Virus record (IMG/VR): IMGVR_UViG_2563366972_000001 | Coordinates: 1-11,846 of that record | Origin: a virus | Lineage: Duplodnaviria > Heunggongvirae > Uroviricota > Caudoviricetes | Strand: one strand, 5' to 3' | DNA: 11,846 nt | Part shown: in pieces, positions 1 through 7,521 of the stretch | Layout of the letters: every line of letters starts with the position of its first letter | Position numbering within the stretch: the first letter of the stretch is position 1 | The notes under the pieces: model-generated | Seen by the model: only the letters and a program-made list of their open reading frames with translations | What the model was told of the DNA's origin: nothing | Databases searched by the model: none | Program-made: the position numbers and the translations under genes

Positions 1-2940
1 ATGCTGTCAGACATAGCGGTCTGCCTGATCCGCTATGTGAAAAATCCCGATTTATGCCCTGCTGAATTGCTGCCATGGCTGGCCTGGGAAATGGCGGTGG
101 ATACCTGGAATGAACACTGGACGGAGACGGAAAAAAGGTCTGCGATAAAACGTGCTGCTTACATCCACCGCCACAGAGGGACTAAAGCGGCGCTGATGGC
201 ATCGCTGGCTGACAGTCCCTTCCGGTCGCAGATTGTTGAGTGGTATGAGCAGACCCCACCCGGGGAGCCGTATACCTTTCGTCTGAACGTGGAGCAGAAG
301 GATTTACCGGTGCTGATGAATGATCATCAGGATCTGAAGCATGCGGTGCTTCGTGCGAAAAATCTGCGCTCATGGTTTTCGGTTCACGTTTATGGTCGCA
401 GTGCAGGCCAGGTTTATGCAGCCGGTTACGCCTGTGCCACCGAATATATAAGGAGCCGCATTTTTCCGACCGGTATCACCCTGACGGAAACGGAAGTCTG
501 GCTGGAGCCCGGGGAATGTCGTTTTATCGGCGTCACTATCCTGCCACCGGAGGCGGAAGACAAAAGTTTCACTGTCCGGGTTGCAGAGCCTGGTTGTGTC
601 ACAGCCACCCTGGCGGAAGGCGGTTTTCTACTGACGGGACAGACGTACGGAGAATGCCAGGTTACCGTGACCACCCTCAACGGTATCAGTTGCACGGTCA
701 GCGTGAAGGTGGTTCCGGTGCTGGCGTTTGTCTCCCGGGTGGAGTCTGCTGACCGGCCCTTATTTTTTGTCCGGCCTGAAAACGCTGATTTCCTGATTAA
801 TTACGGTGACGGTGATAACAGAGAGTATGCGCTCAGGAGTACAAATTCCGGTGTGCTGTATGGTGTATACGCCACACGCCCGCTGACGGAGGGTACCGAA
901 TATCTTATTACCGTAAAAAACCCCGGGCAGGCCACGCTGCAACGCACAGCAGACGCGTTCTCCGCCGCCCTGAATCCGGTCACGGAGCTGGTTCGTTATA
1001 CGGGAACAGTGAGTTCATTAGCGTCGTTTGTCAGTGGACAGCGAAACCTGGTCACTGTACATGACGACGCCTTTAAGGGACTGCAGGGGGTACGGGACTG
1101 TTACAGCCTGTTTACTGGTTGTACCGCACTGGAGACGGTTCCCGCCACACTCTTCGCCGGCTTCACTGAGGCCCGGAGTTTCAGAGGCGTCTTCAGTAAT
1201 TGTACCTCGCTGTCAGCTGTCCCTGACGGCTTATTCCGTGGTCTGGAGAACGCGGGTACGTTTGACAGTGCATTTTATGGCTGCAGCGCGTTGCAGACGG
1301 TGGGGCGAGACCTGTTTTCAGGCTGCACATCGGCCAAGGATTTTGGCAGGCTTTTTTATAACTGTACCTCACTGACCAGTATCGGCGAGGGGCTGTTTAC
1401 TGGCTGTGTCAGTGCCACGCAGTTCAGGGAGGCGTTTTATTCCTGCAGTCGACTGGCGACCATTCCCGGAGGTATCTTCAGCCATGTGCCTGGCGGGGAT
1501 TTTTCCCGGACATTCAGCAAATGTACGTCACTGACGGCGGTACCTTCCGGGATGTTCAGCCCGTGCATCCGCTCAACGACATTCCGGGAGGCATTTATGG
1601 ACTGCAGTGCATTACAGTCCCTCCCGGATGGCCTGTTTGAAAATCTGACCAGCGTCACCACCTTCAACAGTGTGTTCAGAAACTGTACGGCGCTGCGTAC
1701 CACCGGAGACCATCTGTTCCGTAACTGCACGGGGGCAGGAGATTTTTCTTTCGCATTTTACGGTGATAAATCTCTGCAAAGCACCGGAGAGGGGCTTCTG
1801 GCAGGCTGTACCGGTGCAAAAGACTTTGCTTCGGCATTTTATAACTGCCGGGTGCTGAGCGTAATGCCGGATTTTGGTGACTGCCGTGAGCTGACGACCC
1901 TTCATTCTGCATTTCGTAACTGCGAGTCACTGACGGAGATCCCTGACGGTGCGTTCAGAGGGGCTGAAAATCTCATCAACGTGTATAACGCCTTTATGGC
2001 GTGTTCCGGTCTGCTGCGCGTGGGGGAACGTGTATTCAGTGACTGCACCGCCCTGACACAGGTCCGGGGGCTGTTCGTCGACTGTGTCTCGCTGCGCTCT
2101 GTTGGAGCCCGCTTATTTGACGGGTGCTCAGAAATTAAAGAGCTACTGGAGGTATTCAGGAACTGCCGCGCTCTGCGCACCCTGCCGCTGATGCTGTTTG
2201 GCAATGTTCCCGGAGTCACCTATCTCTGGATGACGTTCAGTGGCTGCATTTCGCTGGAAAGCCTCCCGGACGACCTGTTTGGAGCCATGACGAAACTGAC
2301 GACCGCCAGGGGTATTTTTTATTCCTGCACATCACTGACCACTGTTCCGCCCGGTGTGTTTGAGCACAATCCGCTGCTGGTTACGGTGGAGAGTGCTTTT
2401 GCGGGATGTACAGCGCTGCAGACCGTACCGGAGTCGCTGTTTGCTGCCTGTCCGCTGATATCCGTCTTCCTGAGTGCGTTTTCTGAAACCGGACTGGTCT
2501 CAGTGCCTGCAGGGCTGTTCCGTCACAACCTGCACGTCACCACGTTCAGTAAGGTGTTTATGAAATGTTCCCGTCTGGAGGTGGTCCCCGCGGATCTGTT
2601 TTCCGGTAACAGTCTGGCCACGGATTTCAGCTATGCGTTCAGCCAGTGCACATCACTGAAACAGGCGGAAACAGGCTTGCTTTCCGGTACAGCGGTATCG
2701 GATGCCGGGCACCTCTTTGACAGATGTGTATCACTGGAAAGTATTGTGGAGGCGATTTTCAGCCCGGATTTTTTCAGTACGGTGACGGATGTAAGAAGCG
2801 CGTTTGAAGGGTGTGTGAAGCTGCGCGGGCACGGGCTGTCATTTATCAGCAGACTGCCTGAGCAGGTCATCCATGCAAGAACACTGTTTCAGTGCACAGC
2901 ACTGGACGATTACGGCGAATTGCCGACAGGATGGAGTTAA
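1..2940 (+). CDS. 5'-partial baseplate wedge protein (P2 gpI-like) fused in frame to an ~820-aa C-terminal extension: beta-rich, possibly Ig-like, segment plus tandem Cys-containing LRR-like repeats
   Basis: One uninterrupted frame from window position 1 to TAA at 2938-2940; the window starts inside the gene, so the true start lies upstream. Residues ~1-155 carry the tail-protein-I hallmark 'NPDLCPAELLPWLAWEMAVDTWNEHWTETEKRSAIKRAAY...EWYEQTPPGEPYTFRLNV', which aligns to my recollection of P2 gpI (NPDTCPANLLPWLAWAFSVDRWDEKW...). Where gpI normally ends (~nt 465) the frame continues for >800 aa. Residues ~355-979 are ~22 repeats of ~27 aa with motif F-x-x-C-[TS]-x-L-x-x-[VI]-P-x-x-L-F. Confidence 0.8.
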   Translation: MLSDIAVCLIRYVKNPDLCPAELLPWLAWEMAVDTWNEHWTETEKRSAIKRAAYIHRHRGTKAALMASLADSPFRSQIVEWYEQTPPGEPYTFRLNVEQKDLPVLMNDHQDLKHAVLRAKNLRSWFSVHVYGRSAGQVYAAGYACATEYIRSRIFPTGITLTETEVWLEPGECRFIGVTILPPEAEDKSFTVRVAEPGCVTATLAEGGFLLTGQTYGECQVTVTTLNGISCTVSVKVVPVLAFVSRVESADRPLFFVRPENADFLINYGDGDNREYALRSTNSGVLYGVYATRPLTEGTEYLITVKNPGQATLQRTADAFSAALNPVTELVRYTGTVSSLASFVSGQRNLVTVHDDAFKGLQGVRDCYSLFTGCTALETVPATLFAGFTEARSFRGVFSNCTSLSAVPDGLFRGLENAGTFDSAFYGCSALQTVGRDLFSGCTSAKDFGRLFYNCTSLTSIGEGLFTGCVSATQFREAFYSCSRLATIPGGIFSHVPGGDFSRTFSKCTSLTAVPSGMFSPCIRSTTFREAFMDCSALQSLPDGLFENLTSVTTFNSVFRNCTALRTTGDHLFRNCTGAGDFSFAFYGDKSLQSTGEGLLAGCTGAKDFASAFYNCRVLSVMPDFGDCRELTTLHSAFRNCESLTEIPDGAFRGAENLINVYNAFMACSGLLRVGERVFSDCTALTQVRGLFVDCVSLRSVGARLFDGCSEIKELLEVFRNCRALRTLPLMLFGNVPGVTYLWMTFSGCISLESLPDDLFGAMTKLTTARGIFYSCTSLTTVPPGVFEHNPLLVTVESAFAGCTALQTVPESLFAACPLISVFLSAFSETGLVSVPAGLFRHNLHVTTFSKVFMKCSRLEVVPADLFSGNSLATDFSYAFSQCTSLKQAETGLLSGTAVSDAGHLFDRCVSLESIVEAIFSPDFFSTVTDVRSAFEGCVKLRGHGLSFISRLPEQVIHARTLFQCTALDDYGELPTGWS
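1063..2937 (+). repeat. Protein-level tandem repeat array (~22 units x ~81 nt) inside the gpI-fusion ORF; leucine-rich-repeat-like with one conserved Cys per unit
   Basis: Translation shows recurring units such as 'FSNCTSLSAVPDGLFRGLENAGTFDSA', 'FYNCTSLTSIGEGLFTGCVSATQFREA', 'FSKCTSLTAVPSGMFSPCIRSTTFREA', 'FYSCTSLTTVPPGVFEHNPLLVTVESA'. Units are diverged at nucleotide level, so this is an old internal repeat, not a recent duplication. Confidence 0.7.
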
Positions 2941-2942
2941 CC

Positions 2943-3158
2943 ATGACGTTCGTTCAGATGAAGACGTTAATTCATTTCTGCCAGACGGACAGTTGTTTCG
3001 TTGCGTACCTGCAGACACTGGCCCGGGCCGGGGTTCTGGTGATTAACGACGGAGACATTGATGAAGAGAAAAAAGAGGTCAGCCCGGAACTCCGTGACCG
3101 CCTTGTCCGTGTATTTGGTCTGACCACAGAGGAGGCTGTATGTCCGGACTTGTCCTGA
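2943..3158 (+). CDS. Small hypothetical protein (~71 aa) between the gpI-fusion gene and tail fiber H
   Basis: ATG at 2943 preceded by GGAG (2933-2936) with 6-nt spacing. Ends at TGA 3156-3158, overlapping the H start at 3140. Alternative in-frame starts at ATG 2931 or GTG 2892. No family recognised from the translation (MTFVQMKTLIHFCQTDSCFVAYLQTLARAGVLVINDGDIDEEKKEV...). Confidence 0.45.
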   Translation: MTFVQMKTLIHFCQTDSCFVAYLQTLARAGVLVINDGDIDEEKKEVSPELRDRLVRVFGLTTEEAVCPDLS

Positions 3159-4567
3159 CGCTGGCCGGGGCCAGGGAGATTGAAGCCGCCTGGCAGGCCG
3201 GTAAAACGGTTGTTCTGTCAGATGTGGTACTGGGTGACGGTGGTGACGGAAACCTGCCGGATACACCGGATGATATGGCGGCGGTCACGCAGTTGTATGG
3301 GCCGTTTGGCAGTGAACCCTTTTCCACAGCCGGCAGTGACGAAGGGATGATCAGTGGTCAGGTGGTGATTGACTGCAAAAAATATCCGGGAAAAATCCTG
3401 CGTGAACTGGGGCTGCGCAGTCGTTCAGGTACGCTGATTGCTTACGGGCGCTATCCGGATACGTATCTGCCTGCCCAGACGGATTCCATTGTGAAAGAAG
3501 TGATTATCACACTGGTGCTGACACTGACGCATGCGGAAAGTGTGGTGGTGGAAATTGACCCGAACAGGGCCATTATTACTCAGGAAATCGGAGACAGACG
3601 CTATCTGCAACGAAAAAAGAATCTTTCGGATGTGGAAGACAAGGATGAGGCTGTTGAAAACCTCGGATTAAAACCCACGGTGGACAAGGCAAAAAATGCC
3701 GTTCAGCGTGATGGTGACACCATGACCGGGGAACTGAAAATCCGTGGCGTTAATGCGCTGAGGATTTTCAACGACGCTTTTGGCCTTATTTTTCGTCGTT
3801 CGGAAGAGTGCCTGCATCTTATCCCTACCAGTGAAGGTCAGGGCGAGAATGGCGATATTGGTCCACTTCGACCGTTCACTATTAATCTGCGGACGGGTGA
3901 AATATCCATGTCGCATAAAGTGTCTGTTGGCGGCGGTTCTCAGGTCAATGGTGCGCTGGGTATCGGCGTTCAGAACGCGCTGGGCGGAAACTCAATTGCT
4001 TTCGGGGATAACGATACAGGTATAAAACAAAACGGCGACGGCATTCTGGATGTTTATGCGAATGGACAGCATGTATTTCGTTTCCAGAATGGTGTGGCGA
4101 TAGCGTTAAAAAATATTCAGGCCGGAAATGCTAAAAAATTCACGTTATCCAGCGCCAACAACTCCACGAAAAACGCAACGTTTAATTTATGGGGTAATTC
4201 ATCCCGACCTGTAGTTGCAGAGCTTGGTGATGATTCCGGCTGGCATTTTTACAGCCAGAGAAATACCGATGGCAGTATCACATTCGCTGTAAACGGACAG
4301 ATGACCCCATCAAACTATGGAAATTTCGATGCCCGTTATCAGCAGCGAAATGGCGGCGTGCAGGATGTGCGTTATGGTTCCGAAATGTTCTATAACCCTG
4401 GGGGAAATGAAATTTCCTGGACATTTCGCTCACCTGCAGGCTACGGGTTATCCGGTATTAATGTGCAGGAAACCGGAAGTAATTCGGCAGATAACATCGG
4501 CGGCGTGTATTACCGTCCGCTTCAGAAACTGATTAATGGCACCTGGTATAACGTGGCGAGTGTTTAA
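3140..4567 (+). CDS. H: Tail fiber protein (P2 gpH-like) with P2-type C-terminal receptor-binding region
   Basis: ATG at 3140 preceded by GAGGAGG. N-terminus 'LTLAGAREIEAAW...VVLGDGGDG' resembles the baseplate-attachment N-terminus of P2/Mu fibers. C-terminal ~200 aa 'NALGGNSIAFGDNDTGIKQNGDGILDVYANGQHVFRFQNGVAIALKNIQAG...RPVVAELGDDSGWHFYSQRNTDGSITFAVNGQMTPSNYGNFDARY...INGTWYNVASV' closely matches the remembered P2 gpH C-terminus. At 475 aa it is shorter than P2 gpH (669 aa as I recall). Confidence 0.9.
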   Translation: MSGLVLTLAGAREIEAAWQAGKTVVLSDVVLGDGGDGNLPDTPDDMAAVTQLYGPFGSEPFSTAGSDEGMISGQVVIDCKKYPGKILRELGLRSRSGTLIAYGRYPDTYLPAQTDSIVKEVIITLVLTLTHAESVVVEIDPNRAIITQEIGDRRYLQRKKNLSDVEDKDEAVENLGLKPTVDKAKNAVQRDGDTMTGELKIRGVNALRIFNDAFGLIFRRSEECLHLIPTSEGQGENGDIGPLRPFTINLRTGEISMSHKVSVGGGSQVNGALGIGVQNALGGNSIAFGDNDTGIKQNGDGILDVYANGQHVFRFQNGVAIALKNIQAGNAKKFTLSSANNSTKNATFNLWGNSSRPVVAELGDDSGWHFYSQRNTDGSITFAVNGQMTPSNYGNFDARYQQRNGGVQDVRYGSEMFYNPGGNEISWTFRSPAGYGLSGINVQETGSNSADNIGGVYYRPLQKLINGTWYNVASV

Positions 4568-4569
4568 CA

Positions 4570-5112
4570 ATGTTACATTTAAAAAATATTACTGCGGGTA
4601 ATCCGAAAACCGCGGAACAATATCAGATGACAAAACAACATGGTATCACCTGGCTTTTTTCGGAAGATGACAAAAACTGGTATGAAGAGCTGAAAAATTT
4701 TGCCAGTGACACCATAAAAATGGTTTACACCGGAGACGGGCGCGTGGTGTGGGTCGGTAAGGATGTGACAGGCATTGAACCCCGTAACGCCAGTGTTATT
4801 GAAGTTCCTGATATTACCGCTAATCGCCGTATTACCGTGCCTGGTTACTGGTTTTACCGCGACGATAAATTTGTCTTCGACTACAAACTTAAAGCGGAAG
4901 ATGAGCGCGATGCCCTGTTAAAACAGGTCAGCATCATGACCAGCGAGTGGGAAAAAGACCTGCTGCCGGGATTAATCAGTGACGAAGACAGGGAGAAGCT
5001 GAAAGCGTACCGCATTTACGCGAAATCGCTGCAGGCGATGGATTTCAGCGCTATTACGGATAAGACCACATACAACAATATTAGCTGGCCTGAGCATCCA
5101 CAAAATACCTGA
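4570..5112 (+). CDS. G: Tail fiber assembly chaperone (P2 gpG-like)
   Basis: Starts 2 nt after the H stop. N-terminus 'MLHLKNITAGNPKTAEQYQMTK...WYEELKNF..DTIKMVY' and 'VIEVPDITANRR' match the remembered P2 gpG ([22 protein letters not shown]...WYEEVKNF...VVEVPDITSNRR). Confidence 0.85.
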   Translation: MLHLKNITAGNPKTAEQYQMTKQHGITWLFSEDDKNWYEELKNFASDTIKMVYTGDGRVVWVGKDVTGIEPRNASVIEVPDITANRRITVPGYWFYRDDKFVFDYKLKAEDERDALLKQVSIMTSEWEKDLLPGLISDEDREKLKAYRIYAKSLQAMDFSAITDKTTYNNISWPEHPQNT

Positions 5113-5130
5113 AAAAGAAGTTAATCATCT

Positions 5131-5153
5131 GACCGCCTGAGGGCGGTTTTTTT
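5131..5153 (+). terminator. Rho-independent terminator-like hairpin downstream of G
   Basis: Stem CCGCC (5133-5137), loop TGAG, stem GGCGG (5142-5146), then a 7-T run (5147-5153). Lies 19 nt after the G stop and just upstream of the sheath RBS. Confidence 0.65.
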
Positions 5154-5166
5154 ATGGGAGAAATGT

Positions 5167-6642
5167 ATGTCCGGATTACATGGTGTTGAAACCATTGAAC
5201 TGACAACAGGCACGGTTGCCGTGCAGACCATCTCCACGGCAGTGATTGGCCTGGTGGGGACTGCGCCGGGCGCCTCCGGCGGTGTGTGCGCTTCCGGTAC
5301 TGCTGGCTCGTGGCTGCTGGGAACGGCGCTGGATTTCACGGCGAAACAGGAGGGCCGGGTCGGCAATAAGATTTCGGTGGTTGCCGTCGCGGCCACAGAA
5401 CAAAGCGCGCAGACAGTGGTCTCGCTGAAAGGTACGACCCTGACGATAACGCTGGGGACGGATGAGCACAGCCAGGTTAACGCCACGGTGGAGCGTGTGA
5501 CTGAAGTGGTGAATGCGCTGGGGGATTCGCCTGTGACGGCGGCTGTCAGCACCCTGAATGCAGGAGACGCTGAAAATAAAGTGGTGTTGCCGTTCAGCCT
5601 GACGTTATCCGGCGGAGAAGATGAGGCGTTCCCGGTCAATACACCAGTGGTGGTGGCAGGAGCCATTACTCAGGCAGGGAAACTGGGCACAGCCGGAACA
5701 TTATACCCGGCCCTGCGAGATATTTTTGACCAGACTGGTGCGATGGTGATTGTGGTGCGCGCAGAAAGTAAAACAAAGGCGAAAGAGGCCGAACAGCGTG
5801 CGGCGGTGATTCAGGCCATGGAGGCGCTGACAGAAAGTAAGGGCGTGACAGGCTATCAACCGCGCATCCTCATTGCCACGGGGTACAGTGAGGATGATGG
5901 CGTGGCAAAGGCGCTGGAAACGTATGCCGTGAAGCTGCGGGCTGTGGCCTATATTGACTCGCCCTCAATGGCAACGCCGCAGGATGTGGTTCAGCGTCGC
6001 GCGTCCTTTGGCGGACGCGTGGAGCTTCTGCGTCCGCGCGTATCAGTGACGGATGACAGCGGGCAGACGGTGTTTCGTCCGTATTCGGCGCGCGCTGCCG
6101 GGCTGCGTGCCCGTATTGATTACGAAAAAGGGTGGTGGTGGTCCAAATCAAACCAGGACGTGATGAATATCACCGGTCTGGAGCAGGTGGATACGTTTAT
6201 TCTCGGGGAGCAGAACTGCACGGCAAACCTGCTGAACATGGAAAATATCTCCACCATTATTCGTCACGATGGTTTTAAACACTGGGGCAACCGTCTGTGT
6301 TCATCCCACAGTCAGTGGCGTTTTGAGCCGGTACGCCGTACTGCAGATGTGATTGAGGACAGCATTCAGGAGGCCATGCTGCCTTATGTCGATCGTCCGC
6401 TTGATCGGGATGTGGCAGACGACATTCTTGGCAGCATTAATGCCTATATGCGTCAGCTTAAAAATCTGGGCGCGATCCACGGAGGCAGTGCATGGCTGAA
6501 CGATGAACTGAACACTGCAGAAACCCTGGCTGCAGGGCAGTTGTATATCGATTATGACTTTGGGCCGAAGTCACCACTGGAGCGCCTGACACTGCGGGCG
6601 ATGATTAACAATAAACTGGCGCTGGAGGAGCTGACGGTATGA
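5167..6642 (+). CDS. FI: Contractile tail sheath protein (P2 gpFI-like) with an extra N-proximal insertion domain
   Basis: ATG at 5167 with GGGAG at 5156-5160. N-terminus 'MSGLHGVETIEL..GT..V.TISTAVIGLVGTA' and the C-terminal half 'PRILIATGYSED...RAAGLRARIDYEKGWW...IIRHDGFKHWGNRLCS...ETLAAGQLYIDYDFGPKSPLERLTLR' match the remembered P2 FI. At 491 aa it is about 95 aa longer than P2 FI. Confidence 0.9.
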   Translation: MSGLHGVETIELTTGTVAVQTISTAVIGLVGTAPGASGGVCASGTAGSWLLGTALDFTAKQEGRVGNKISVVAVAATEQSAQTVVSLKGTTLTITLGTDEHSQVNATVERVTEVVNALGDSPVTAAVSTLNAGDAENKVVLPFSLTLSGGEDEAFPVNTPVVVAGAITQAGKLGTAGTLYPALRDIFDQTGAMVIVVRAESKTKAKEAEQRAAVIQAMEALTESKGVTGYQPRILIATGYSEDDGVAKALETYAVKLRAVAYIDSPSMATPQDVVQRRASFGGRVELLRPRVSVTDDSGQTVFRPYSARAAGLRARIDYEKGWWWSKSNQDVMNITGLEQVDTFILGEQNCTANLLNMENISTIIRHDGFKHWGNRLCSSHSQWRFEPVRRTADVIEDSIQEAMLPYVDRPLDRDVADDILGSINAYMRQLKNLGAIHGGSAWLNDELNTAETLAAGQLYIDYDFGPKSPLERLTLRAMINNKLALEELTV

Positions 6643-7157
6643 TGACGGGTGAAAAAAAACTGTTGCGCGCATGGGCGTTATTTCTTCCTGGCGGGATCCG
6701 TCTTCAGGGGGCGCATGAATACACGCCGCCTGCCATTAATATCACGACAGTGGATATCAAAACCGGCGCAATGGATGCACCAGTGGCAGTGGATGACGGC
6801 ATGGAGGCGCTGACCTGCTCATTTAAGATTTATGGCTACGATGTTGCCATGCTGACCCTGCTGGGATTACAGGCCGGGCTTTATTCGCCGGAGATTGTTG
6901 TGCGTCAGGCTTACCGGGTGGGAAATGCGACCAGCGGGGAGGTGGAGACACTGCAGGGGATGATCACCAGTATCACACCAGATGCGCGTCCGGCGACATC
7001 ACAGGCGGATGCCTCGGTGACAGTGGAAATGTCGCTGAGTTATTACCGTCAGGCTGTCGACGGTCTGGAAACCATCTGCATTATTCCGGAGGAATTTGTA
7101 CGTCGTATTAACGGCGTTAATGTTCTGTCGGATCTGAAAAAAATTATCCGGGTTTAA
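6639..7157 (+). CDS. FII: Tail tube protein (P2 gpFII-like)
   Basis: ATG at 6639 overlaps the sheath stop (ATGA), with GGAGGAG at 6624-6630. 172 aa, the same length as P2 FII. C-terminal 'MSLSYYRQAVDGLETICIIPEEFVRRINGVNVLSDL' resembles the tube family motif. Confidence 0.85.
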   Translation: MMTGEKKLLRAWALFLPGGIRLQGAHEYTPPAINITTVDIKTGAMDAPVAVDDGMEALTCSFKIYGYDVAMLTLLGLQAGLYSPEIVVRQAYRVGNATSGEVETLQGMITSITPDARPATSQADASVTVEMSLSYYRQAVDGLETICIIPEEFVRRINGVNVLSDLKKIIRV

Positions 7158-7176
7158 TCCCGGCATCCTGTCAAGC

Positions 7177-7205
7177 AGGCGGCTCAGGCCGCCTTTTCTA
7201 TTTTT
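7177..7205 (+). terminator. Intrinsic terminator or attenuator hairpin between tube and E
   Basis: AGGCGGC (7177-7183), loop TCAG, GCCGCCT (7188-7194) form a perfect 7-bp stem, followed by TTTTCTATTTTT. Sits 20 nt after the tube stop and before the E RBS (AGGAG 7208-7212). Confidence 0.65.
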
Positions 7206-7218
7206 AAAGGAGACGCTT

Positions 7219-7521
7219 ATGTCGGAAAAAAACAGTGTTCCCGCCAGCAGTGTGGAAATTGTGTTATCCGTGCCATATGTCACCACATCAGGACAGACGA
7301 TCACCCACGTCACCATGCGTGCGCCTACCGTCCGCGATCGTCTGTTGCATCGTCGGAGTAACAAACCGGAAGCAGAGGCTGATCTGGATATGATTGCCGG
7401 TCTGTGTGGGATGGACGCGGCAGACATGATGAACATGGAAGCGTGTGATTACCTGGCCCTGGAGCGTCAGTTTAATGTTTTTTTGCTGCCGCCGGTCCGG
7501 CGGAAGAAGAAAGCATCCTGA
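7219..7521 (+). CDS. E: Tail assembly chaperone (P2 gpE-like), zero-frame product
   Basis: ATG at 7219 with AGGAG RBS; 100 aa. 'MRAPTVRDRLLHRR...' resembles gpE. The gene position after the tube and before the tape measure is canonical. Confidence 0.8.
   Translation: MSEKNSVPASSVEIVLSVPYVTTSGQTITHVTMRAPTVRDRLLHRRSNKPEAEADLDMIAGLCGMDAADMMNMEACDYLALERQFNVFLLPPVRRKKKAS

Follow-up and report, generated by a model that had tools for sequence, protein, structure and literature searches.

An AT-rich fibre-tip and chaperone block in a P2-like prophage tail is very probably an exchangeable specificity cassette

Introduction

The sequence analysed here, IMG/VR virus record IMGVR_UViG_2563366972_000001 (11,846 nt, referred to below as the window), carries a prophage's tail module, for a contractile tail like that of P2, as recognized from its map of open reading frames (ORFs) and from Pfam matches. 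Our subject is the AT-rich stretch within it that covers the distal part of the tail fibre gene H and the following gene G, which encodes a tail fibre assembly chaperone (Tfa). The window is a single contig flanked by two N runs in scaffold KB733034.1 of NCBI assembly GCA_000352305.1 (positions 6736-10000 and 21847-22306 of the source-genome locus, L009). That P2-, Mu- and lambda-like phages exchange fibre tips together with their chaperones has stood in textbooks since 1992, and such exchange is already used to retarget phages and tailocins; the P2 H/G pair, as reported by Haggard-Ljungquist and colleagues in 1992, is said to be the original case of horizontal fibre-gene transfer between unrelated phages. 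A sequence-only reading of the present DNA had singled out 3550-5112 as a block of this kind, a specificity cassette strongly depleted in GC and grafted onto a resident fibre N-terminus.

Results

Genes and segments of the fibre locus

The fibre locus is made up of the following features.

3140-4567, + strand: tail fibre gene H, 475 residues (ORF map, Pfam)
3140-3563, + strand: H codons 1-141, tail-collar, presumed baseplate-docking N-terminal domain; left flank, outside the cassette, 56% GC
3564-3570, + strand: left recombination breakpoint, H codons 142-144 (triplet test, alignment)
3564-3721, + strand: conserved linker, H residues 142-194 (...RRYLQRKKNLSDVEDKDEAVENLGLKPTVDKAKNAVQRDGDT), where junctions with other backbones cluster
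3722-4092, + strand: shaft segment, H residues 195-317 (segment protein identities)
4093-4567, + strand: distal tip, H residues 318-475 (matches to the Mu S and PhiTE structures)
4570-5112, + strand: G, tail fibre assembly chaperone (Tfa), 180 residues (Pfam Caudo_TAP, phrog_136)
5076-5204, + strand: right junction zone, comprising the last 12 G codons, the intergenic terminator and the first 13 sheath codons (match ends)
5131-5155, + strand: terminator-like hairpin GACCGCC-TGAG-GGCGGTT with a T-run, between G and the sheath gene (pattern scan)

H lies directly after baseplate gene I and directly before the Tfa gene, whose start is 3 nt past the H stop. The same order, I-H-G-terminator ahead of the sheath operon, is found in P2, where a terminator follows G at the position equivalent to the hairpin of the window. 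H combines two PHROG families, phrog_4618 ('tail collar fiber protein') over residues 3-200 and phrog_6859 over residues 156-475 (E = 2.8e-139), and its N-terminal domain is matched by PF12571 at residues 4-148 (53.5 bits against a cut-off of 23). The linker, with its ...NLGL... motif, aligns with residues 148-199 of the Mu fibre S (gp49), and the match with the Mu pair S and Tfa U (gp49 and gp50; PDB 5YVQ) takes in the C-terminal region of H including this linker motif and the C-terminal ...INGTWYNVAS strand, whereas the N-terminus of the Mu fibre is unrelated to that of H. Three parts make up the tip: residues 318-399 are conserved and P2-like, residues 400-457 form a variable loop, and residues 458-475 are a conserved C-terminal strand. 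The tip matches the structures of Mu fibre S (5yvq_A, E = 2e-20) and of the short tail fibre of PhiTE (9cuy, E = 5e-17), and by analogy is presumed to be the receptor-binding region. The product of G is recognized by Pfam Caudo_TAP (PF02413; 78.5 bits against a cut-off of 22.1, residues 40-178), by phrog_136 (E = 2.3e-58) and by Mu Tfa U (5yvq_B, E = 2e-36 over residues 1-158).

Residues 172-475 of H align with residues 376-669 of P2 H at 49% identity (319 aligned columns, E = 4e-86), reaching about 83% over window residues 279-398, and G is 40% identical to P2 G; the coincidence of the low-GC block with the P2-like part of H and its chaperone, pointed out in the sequence-only reading, is borne out by these alignments. 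Within the tip the identity to P2 is 79% over residues 318-399 and 21% over the loop 400-457. The two fibres differ in length (669 residues in P2 against 475), since the window H is without the long repeat-rich shaft of P2 H, and their N-terminal docking domains are 27% identical. A further difference from P2 is that the tail of the window belongs to a hybrid prophage with non-P2 head genes.

The 54-nt spacer between G and the sheath gene (5113-5166) is mostly taken up by the hairpin, and thus leaves no space for a P2-type Ogr-dependent late promoter before the sheath operon; late transcription is probably organized unlike that of P2, for example by read-through or antitermination. A scan of 2800-5400 for sigma-70-like promoters returned three sites against 2.7 expected, which is at chance level, and no Rfam family rose above threshold anywhere in the window, the AT-rich block included.

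Base composition and codon usage

An unconstrained two-change-point likelihood scan delimits a low-GC block at 3481-5210 (46.6% GC against 54.4% elsewhere; log-likelihood ratio 17.7). None of 200 shuffles of 50-nt blocks matched it (maximum ratio 10.8, against 17.2 on the same grid), 100-nt bins inside and outside the block differ (Mann-Whitney p = 1.4e-6), and the lowest-GC 1563-nt window of the entire sequence begins at 3570. The interval 3550-5112 has 46.9% GC against 54.2% for the remainder, a gap of about 7.5 points, with 47.6% for H from 3550 onward and 45.5% for G, and with flanks at 54-57% (H 5' part 55.9%, gene I 54.8%, sheath 57.0%). The low-GC block that had been read from the sequence is therefore real and in its proper place, but its GC content is not the 38-40% that had been given for it, nor do the flanks reach the 55-65% set against it. 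The hand counts behind those figures are themselves correct (36.7% at 4081-4140, 38.3% at 4621-4680 and 65.0% at 5281-5340); the contrast of 15-25 points was overstated because the samples adjoin the global extremes, which in 200-nt windows are a minimum of 37.0% from 4521 and a maximum of 66.5% from 5211.

The discontinuity in GC is significant, whereas that in codon usage is weak and partial: the deficit in GC at synonymous third codon positions (GC3) is significant for the distal part of H (z = -3.2) and non-significant for G (z = -0.8), and deviations like that of distal H are shown by two backbone genes, the tape measure gene (z = -3.0) and the second fibre gene (z = -2.8). Amino acid sequence and backbone codon usage predict 50.9% GC for distal H (observed 47.9%) and 46.8% for G (observed 45.6%), so that roughly one half of the shortfall in H, and almost the whole of that in G, is explained by protein composition. 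In the cassette proteins Asn, Ile, Lys, Gly and Tyr are raised and Ala, Leu and Thr lowered; the low GC is due partly to these Asn/Ile/Lys/Tyr-rich, Ala/Leu-poor proteins and partly, in H, to AT-leaning synonymous codons.

The same dip is present in P2, more strongly than in the window (H C-terminal part 43.0% and G 43.8%, against 57.9% for V-I and 56.2% for FI-E). This statement rests on our computation from the P2 sequence and not on a citation: literature text searches, whose scope did not extend to the 1992 H/G paper and the 2016 P2 review, returned no explicit mention of a GC dip over P2 H/G. In phiP27, the prophages of Escherichia coli SC407 and P13-6 and the loci L010 and L011, the Tfa gene has 43-46% and the distal fibre 48-52% GC against 52-58% in the flanks. 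In prophages of the Rac type, whose baseplate surroundings are themselves at 43-50%, the cassette is inconspicuous. At about 43-48% GC in each of the backbones examined, the low GC is thus a trait of the circulating cassette family. Such steadiness fits a shared circulating pool whose proteins are also under compositional constraint, and is at odds with the recent arrival in this genome of DNA from an AT-rich donor. The earlier reading had taken the dip for a signature of transfer. Being of only some 7.5 points, largely a matter of amino acid composition and common to every allele of the slot, it does not serve as one, and a GC dip over a fibre tip and its Tfa gene, constant as it is in this family, should not be taken as evidence of recent transfer into a given genome.

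Breakpoints and divergence

Two relatives carry the comparison. One is the prophage of E. coli SC407 (L002; NZ_LR778141.1, 835-845 kb), which shares the P2-like tail of the window with others among about 77 complete E. coli genomes; backbone tail genes at 90-95% identity occur in 77 of 5,426 such genomes, and the sheath and tube genes of this backbone in 78 E. coli records (77 genomes). SC407 differs from the window in having a 196-residue baseplate wedge protein I (gpI), an H N-terminal domain of about 67% identity, and lambda-like head genes unrelated to those beside the window. The other relative is a Logan contig (L010) whose gpI, like that of the window, is of a type extended by leucine-rich repeats (LRR).

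Identity to SC407 is 62-68% up to 3563 and 98-100% from 3564; the near-identity stops at 5205, and the cassette so delimited, 3564-5204, is 98% identical in SC407 over its length. Identity to L010 is 99.5% up to 3563, 89% over 3564-4092, about 30% over 4093-4512, 71% over 4513-5076 and 91% over the tail backbone. The DNA of H codons 1-141 is thus 99.5% identical to L010 but 62-68% identical to SC407 and to L003, another relative with this backbone. In a triplet test of the window, SC407 and L010, 148 informative sites in 3127-3563 group the window with L010 and none with SC407, while in 3564-5204 the counts are 10 with L010 and 297 with SC407. The best breakpoint falls between 3563 and 3571 (maximum chi-square 195), at the end of the collar domain. 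It had been predicted that the nearest relatives would change at about 3550, and they do, within 14 nt of that position. The block delimited by relatedness (46.6% GC against 54.3% for the rest) is nearly the same as that delimited by composition.

Synonymous divergence (dS) from SC407 drops from 1.81 in H codons 1-141 to 0.077 in codons 142-475 and 0.067 in G; the sheath, tube, tape measure and D genes have values of 0.165-0.29. The ratio of nonsynonymous to synonymous divergence (dN/dS) lies between 0.05 and 0.15 across all tested genes, which argues that they are functional.

As a separate observation, 14 of the 34 differences between the window and SC407 within the cassette are concentrated in 63 nt (4389-4451; H residues 417-438) in the variable tip loop. 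Gene conversion, or diversifying change in what is likely the receptor-contact loop, could account for such a micro-patch.

The cassette in other backbones and other alleles in the same backbone

A search of the phage collection gave close DNA matches only at 3613/3722-5076 and in the second fibre gene, and cassette DNA of at least 80% identity is present in 222 E. coli records. The matches in other backbones are as follows.

phiP27: 3613-4092, 94% DNA identity
phiP27: 4513-5076, 75% DNA identity
Rac-SA53: 3722-4092, 93% DNA identity
vB_Apl-pPE4: 3722-5074, 84% DNA identity
Rac-type prophage of E. coli B-766: 3722-5076, 96.9% DNA identity
SfV-like prophage of RMDEC364: 3973-5076, 84% DNA identity
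P2: 3973-4339, 76% DNA identity
P2: 4532-4728, 72% DNA identity

In none of these carriers are the baseplate genes or the fibre N-terminus those of the window, and they match it nowhere else, the second fibre gene excepted. The nearest DNA relatives outside the window's own backbone, at 84-97% identity, are phiP27 (L54/L55), Rac-SA53 (tail1/tail2; KU052037.1, L005), B-766 and vB_Apl-pPE4 (PP818812.1, L004), whose baseplate genes and fibre N-termini are entirely different and whose matches share their junctions, at 3613 or 3722, at 4092 and at 5076. The starts of homology are staggered along the linker, at 3542/3564 for collar-type H proteins, 3613 for phiP27, 3669/3681, and 3722 for Rac-SA53, pPE4 and B-766. 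Internally, the DNA matches to phiP27, Rac-SA53 and L010 all stop at 4092-4094 (H residue 318), and a further junction lies at about 4300 or 4513. On the right, the matches to phiP27, pPE4, Rac-SA53, B-766 and RMDEC364 all end at 5074-5076, in the last dozen G codons, and backbone similarity to L011 restarts at 5086.

Conversely, the same backbone carries other alleles, with H proteins of 467 (L003), 405 (L010) and 336 (L011) residues that have different tips and Tfa proteins; the tip is replaced from 4094 in L010 and from about 4300 in L003. Per-segment identities show that the shaft (195-317), the tip base (318-399), the loop (400-457) and the Tfa N-domain are reshuffled semi-independently. 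The shaft protein, for example, is 97.6% identical to phiP27 L54, 95.9% to Rac-SA53 and 99.2% to B-766. Tfa proteins consist of a variable fibre-binding N-domain and a conserved C-domain (PMC9608196), and the Tfa proteins of L003, L010 and phiP27 follow this pattern, with 59-64% identity to G over the N-domain (residues 1-100) and 79-91% over residues 101-168, whereas P2 G shows the opposite (54% against 19%). The H tip and the Tfa N-domain show a tendency to travel together, which falls short of significance over ten homologues.

Two of the carriers merit a remark of their own. vB_Apl-pPE4, recorded as an 'Actinobacillus phage', is gene-for-gene collinear with Rac-SA53 through the baseplate, antirepressor and fibre region; it also bears an E. 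coli-type fibre cassette, and its stated host looks doubtful. In RMDEC364 (L008, 7494-9257) the homologous fibre/Tfa cassette is followed immediately, at the end of the prophage, by ipaH, which encodes an E3 ligase effector of the type III secretion system, also an LRR protein.

Discussion

Base composition, breakpoints, distribution over backbones, homology and purifying selection, all read from sequence, make it very probable that 3564 to about 5204 is the distal 'specificity' module of a P2/Mu-type fibre, a swappable unit comprising H residues 142-475, the cognate Tfa G and the terminator. The earlier proposal of an exchanged specificity cassette is upheld in this respect by the sharp breakpoint at 3563/3571, by unrelated backbones with the same cassette and by other alleles in the same backbone. 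The stretch is a case of the classical fibre mosaicism already known for P2 H/G and Mu S/U.

The functional side of this reading (docking, receptor binding, chaperone action and the effect on host range) is carried over from work on Mu, P2 and R-pyocins. On that analogy the H trimer would dock on wedge protein I through its N-terminal collar domain (1-141), and its distal part would reach the cell surface and bind a receptor there, thereby setting host range. G would act as a chaperone on its cognate fibre, binding the tip by its variable N-domain while its conserved C-domain starts trimerization from the C-terminus; the model of a Tfa seated on the tip, with these two domains, comes from Mu S/U. 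What the sequences themselves show is recombination at the conserved linker and at internal junctions, which swaps distal H along with a matching chaperone. Taking place between phages that reside in or infect the same cell, over the whole cassette or over sub-units split at 4092 and about 4300/4513, such swaps would alter host range without disturbing baseplate assembly. Distal H and G would be swappable as one unit because a conserved linker separates the docking from the distal part and because a tip needs a matching chaperone. The precise module boundaries, at 3564, 4092, about 4300/4513 and 5076-5204, offer natural splice points for fibre engineering on this tail.

Several points weigh against the reading of 3564-5204 as a swapped module. 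The compositional signal is modest and that of G comes almost wholly from its amino acid composition, so that composition alone is no proof of transfer. Co-variation between the H tip (400-457) and the Tfa N-domain is not significant over ten homologues (Spearman rho 0.58, p = 0.08). Moreover, SC407 is the closer relative for the gpI N-terminus, for the cassette and for most of the tail, but L010/L011 for the heads; with nearest relatives that differ between heads, gpI N-terminus, docking block, cassette and the rest of the tail, neither an order of exchanges nor a direction of 'graft onto resident' can be assigned.

A separate matter is the 'resident' fibre N-terminus of the earlier proposal, which does not hold, since H 1-141 itself lies in a second exchanged block (396-3563) and has a dS of 1.81 against SC407.

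The GC dip might, on another view, be a pure by-product of the amino acid needs of a fibre tip and its Tfa, in a block that was inherited vertically and never exchanged. Backbone codon usage does come close to the observed GC for G (46.8% against 45.6%) and less close for distal H (50.9% against 47.9%), the GC3 shift of G is non-significant (z = -0.8), and all alleles in the slot are AT-rich irrespective of their sequence. Yet mere descent leaves unexplained a breakpoint at which informative sites change from 148:0 to 10:297, a cassette dS 2-4 times lower than in the tail genes beside it and some 25 times lower than in the H N-terminal part, a 96.9% identical copy in the unrelated baseplate context of B-766, different alleles in the same backbone and the synonymous shift of distal H (z = -3.2). 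As the sole explanation vertical inheritance is already contradicted, and we give it very little weight. A marginally better chance, though still a slim one, attaches to the proposal that only 396-3563 was imported and that the AT-rich cassette is simply part of an SC407-like recipient tail, not itself moved in this lineage. It would account for both flanks of that block being nearer SC407 than L010 (1-395, 97% against 85%; 3564-5204, 98% against about 70%), for a backbone that leans to SC407 by 361 informative sites to 148, and for block 396-3563 being unmatched in complete E. coli genomes. Three things speak against it: the dS of the cassette from SC407 (0.07) is well under that of the neighbouring tail genes (0.165-0.29), which points to a separate, more recent shared ancestry of the cassette; the head module, being of the L010/L011 type, has no relation to the SC407 one, so that the 'recipient' is ill-defined; and on a wider scale the cassette clearly moves between backbones.

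Two further possibilities deserve hardly any credence. Programmed variation, through an invertible host-range segment (Mu G, P1 C, e14 P) or a diversity-generating retroelement target, is brought to mind by the homology of H and G to Mu S and U, which lie partly within the invertible G segment of Mu. In Mu, however, the variable part stands with a second, inverted gene pair and the Gin invertase, and the window has neither: its longest inverted pairs measure 16-29 nt at 73-95% complementarity and none brackets the cassette, it holds no inverted second copy of a fibre tip and Tfa and no long direct repeat of the template/variable type, and its ORFs include no invertase, recombinase or reverse transcriptase gene. 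Both forms of programmed variation were rejected on these grounds. An assembly chimera at 3564 could be suspected in a draft genome that may hold several related prophages, the more so as the window is bounded by N runs in KB733034.1 and related prophages are often multi-copy, occupying up to eight places per E. coli genome. But the exact 475-residue H recurs on eight contigs; the five places compared come from five samples, four of them besides the source assembly (SRR22402264, SRR16178801, SRR33701578, GCA_012346295.1 and the source GCA_000352305.1). The same G and sheath genes follow H at five of five places, and of the four non-source places the three that have DNA upstream of H all carry the 1005-residue LRR-bearing gpI and the 71-codon ORF. 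Moreover, the parental types share only about eight identical bases at the junction, too few to make an assembler path switch plausible. The chimera was rejected in view of the recurrence of the identical H and its consistent gene neighbourhood.

A neighbouring putative docking block and the LRR-extended gpI

If the distal cassette is the exchangeable specificity module that we take it to be, it is not the only exchanged unit at this locus. To its left lie the following features.

1-2940, + strand: baseplate wedge protein I (gpI), 5' end lost in the scaffold gap
396-3563, + strand: separately exchanged block, comprising gpI from residue 132, the 71-codon ORF and H codons 1-141; 98-99.5% identical to L010
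2943-3158, + strand: 71-codon ORF (ORF map)

As the window begins at an N run, the ATG at position 1 is not the true gpI start, and 26 codons are missing. In L010, L013, L014 and L016 gpI has its full length of 1005 residues, about five times the normal size. A Tail_P2_I domain at residues 10-123 matches the R-pyocin protein Tri2 (PA0619, PDB 6u5b) and is followed by an immunoglobulin (Ig)-like domain (about residues 147-239) and then by some 700 residues of BspA-type leucine-rich repeats. Same-tail E. coli relatives, SC407 among them, have the 196-residue gpI without this extension; against SC407, window 396-3126 stands in place of 97 nt, and these 2.7 kb encode the Ig-like and LRR parts. To the left of the block, window 1-395 is again the more similar to SC407.

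Searches of 5,426 E. coli genomes and 50,697 phage records returned no DNA match to block 396-3563. H residues 1-141, its last part, share 99.3% identity with L010, as against about 67% with the E. coli relatives nearest to the tail backbone. The trio of LRR-gpI, 71-codon ORF and H also occurs in the Klebsiella Peduoviridae phage ST16-OXA48phi5.4. Proteins of this LRR-extended gpI type have a wide distribution, with homologues of 593-1049 residues in Klebsiella, E. coli, Salmonella, E. albertii, Trabulsiella and phage ST16-OXA48phi5.4; the Klebsiella clusters comprise 1,551 and 877 member sequences. One protein is 96% identical to that of the window, and the nearest homologue after it reaches about 45%. 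The 71-codon ORF, which overlaps the H start by 19 nt, belongs to phrog_11426 (unknown function; E = 9e-39) and had no Pfam hit. It accompanies the LRR-type gpI in L009, L010, L013, L014, L016 and the Klebsiella phage, and is absent from L011 and from the short-gpI prophages.

The Mu homologue of gpI, gp48, anchors the N-terminus of its fibre through loop 133-155 (PMC11915804). The divergence of the window gpI from its E. coli relatives begins at residue 132 and so coincides with this docking loop; with a docking interface of that kind one would expect the C-terminal part of gpI to be inherited along with the N-terminus of H. Block 396-3563 may accordingly be a 'docking interface' module that is exchangeable in its own right, apart from the distal specificity cassette. 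For the LRR-extended gpI no functional description was found in the literature, and phrog_9915 is listed as of 'unknown function'; it may be a second, baseplate-mounted adhesin. More tentatively, and with the balance of probability against it, one may picture a tail with two independently exchangeable fibre layers, a docking layer (gpI from residue 132 with its Ig-plus-LRR part of about 850 residues, and H 1-141) and the AT-rich distal cassette, in which the LRR solenoid would be a second host-recognition device mounted on the baseplate beside the fibre. Were this true, docking at the gp48-like loop would explain why the gpI part and the H N-terminus are inherited together. The LRR-extended gpI is in any case a more unusual and more promising lead than the cassette.

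Remaining tail genes, second fibre and heads

The rest of the tail module, as assigned from the ORF map and Pfam, is as follows.

5167-6642: sheath
6639-7157: tube
7219-7521: E
7639-9291: tape measure (T)
9288-9782: U
9757-9975: X
9966-11066: D
from 11091: second fibre gene, lambda Stf-like, cut by the other scaffold gap

The window ends at an N run, and the 252-residue product of the second fibre gene (11091-11846) is accordingly truncated; its N-terminus is of the lambda Stf 'phage_tail_N' type. In phiP27, Rac-SA53, pPE4 and B-766 the second fibre homologue follows directly after the Tfa gene, whereas in the window it lies 6 kb away, after gene D. Homology to these four is interrupted by the 6-kb sheath-to-D block, ending at 5076 and restarting at 11084-11091. 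The virion may thus carry two fibre types besides the LRR-extended gpI.

The head genes adjoining the window are 89-90% identical to the L010/L011 type and unrelated to the SC407 heads. The former type, shared by the source genome, L010 and L011, has a GpA terminase, Portal_2 and a ClpP-capsid fusion (L009, 1-6735); the latter, found in SC407 and P13-6, is lambda-like, with an S49 protease, a decoration protein and a major capsid protein. One P2-like tail module is here combined with two unrelated head modules, a case of head/tail mosaicism at the level of whole modules.

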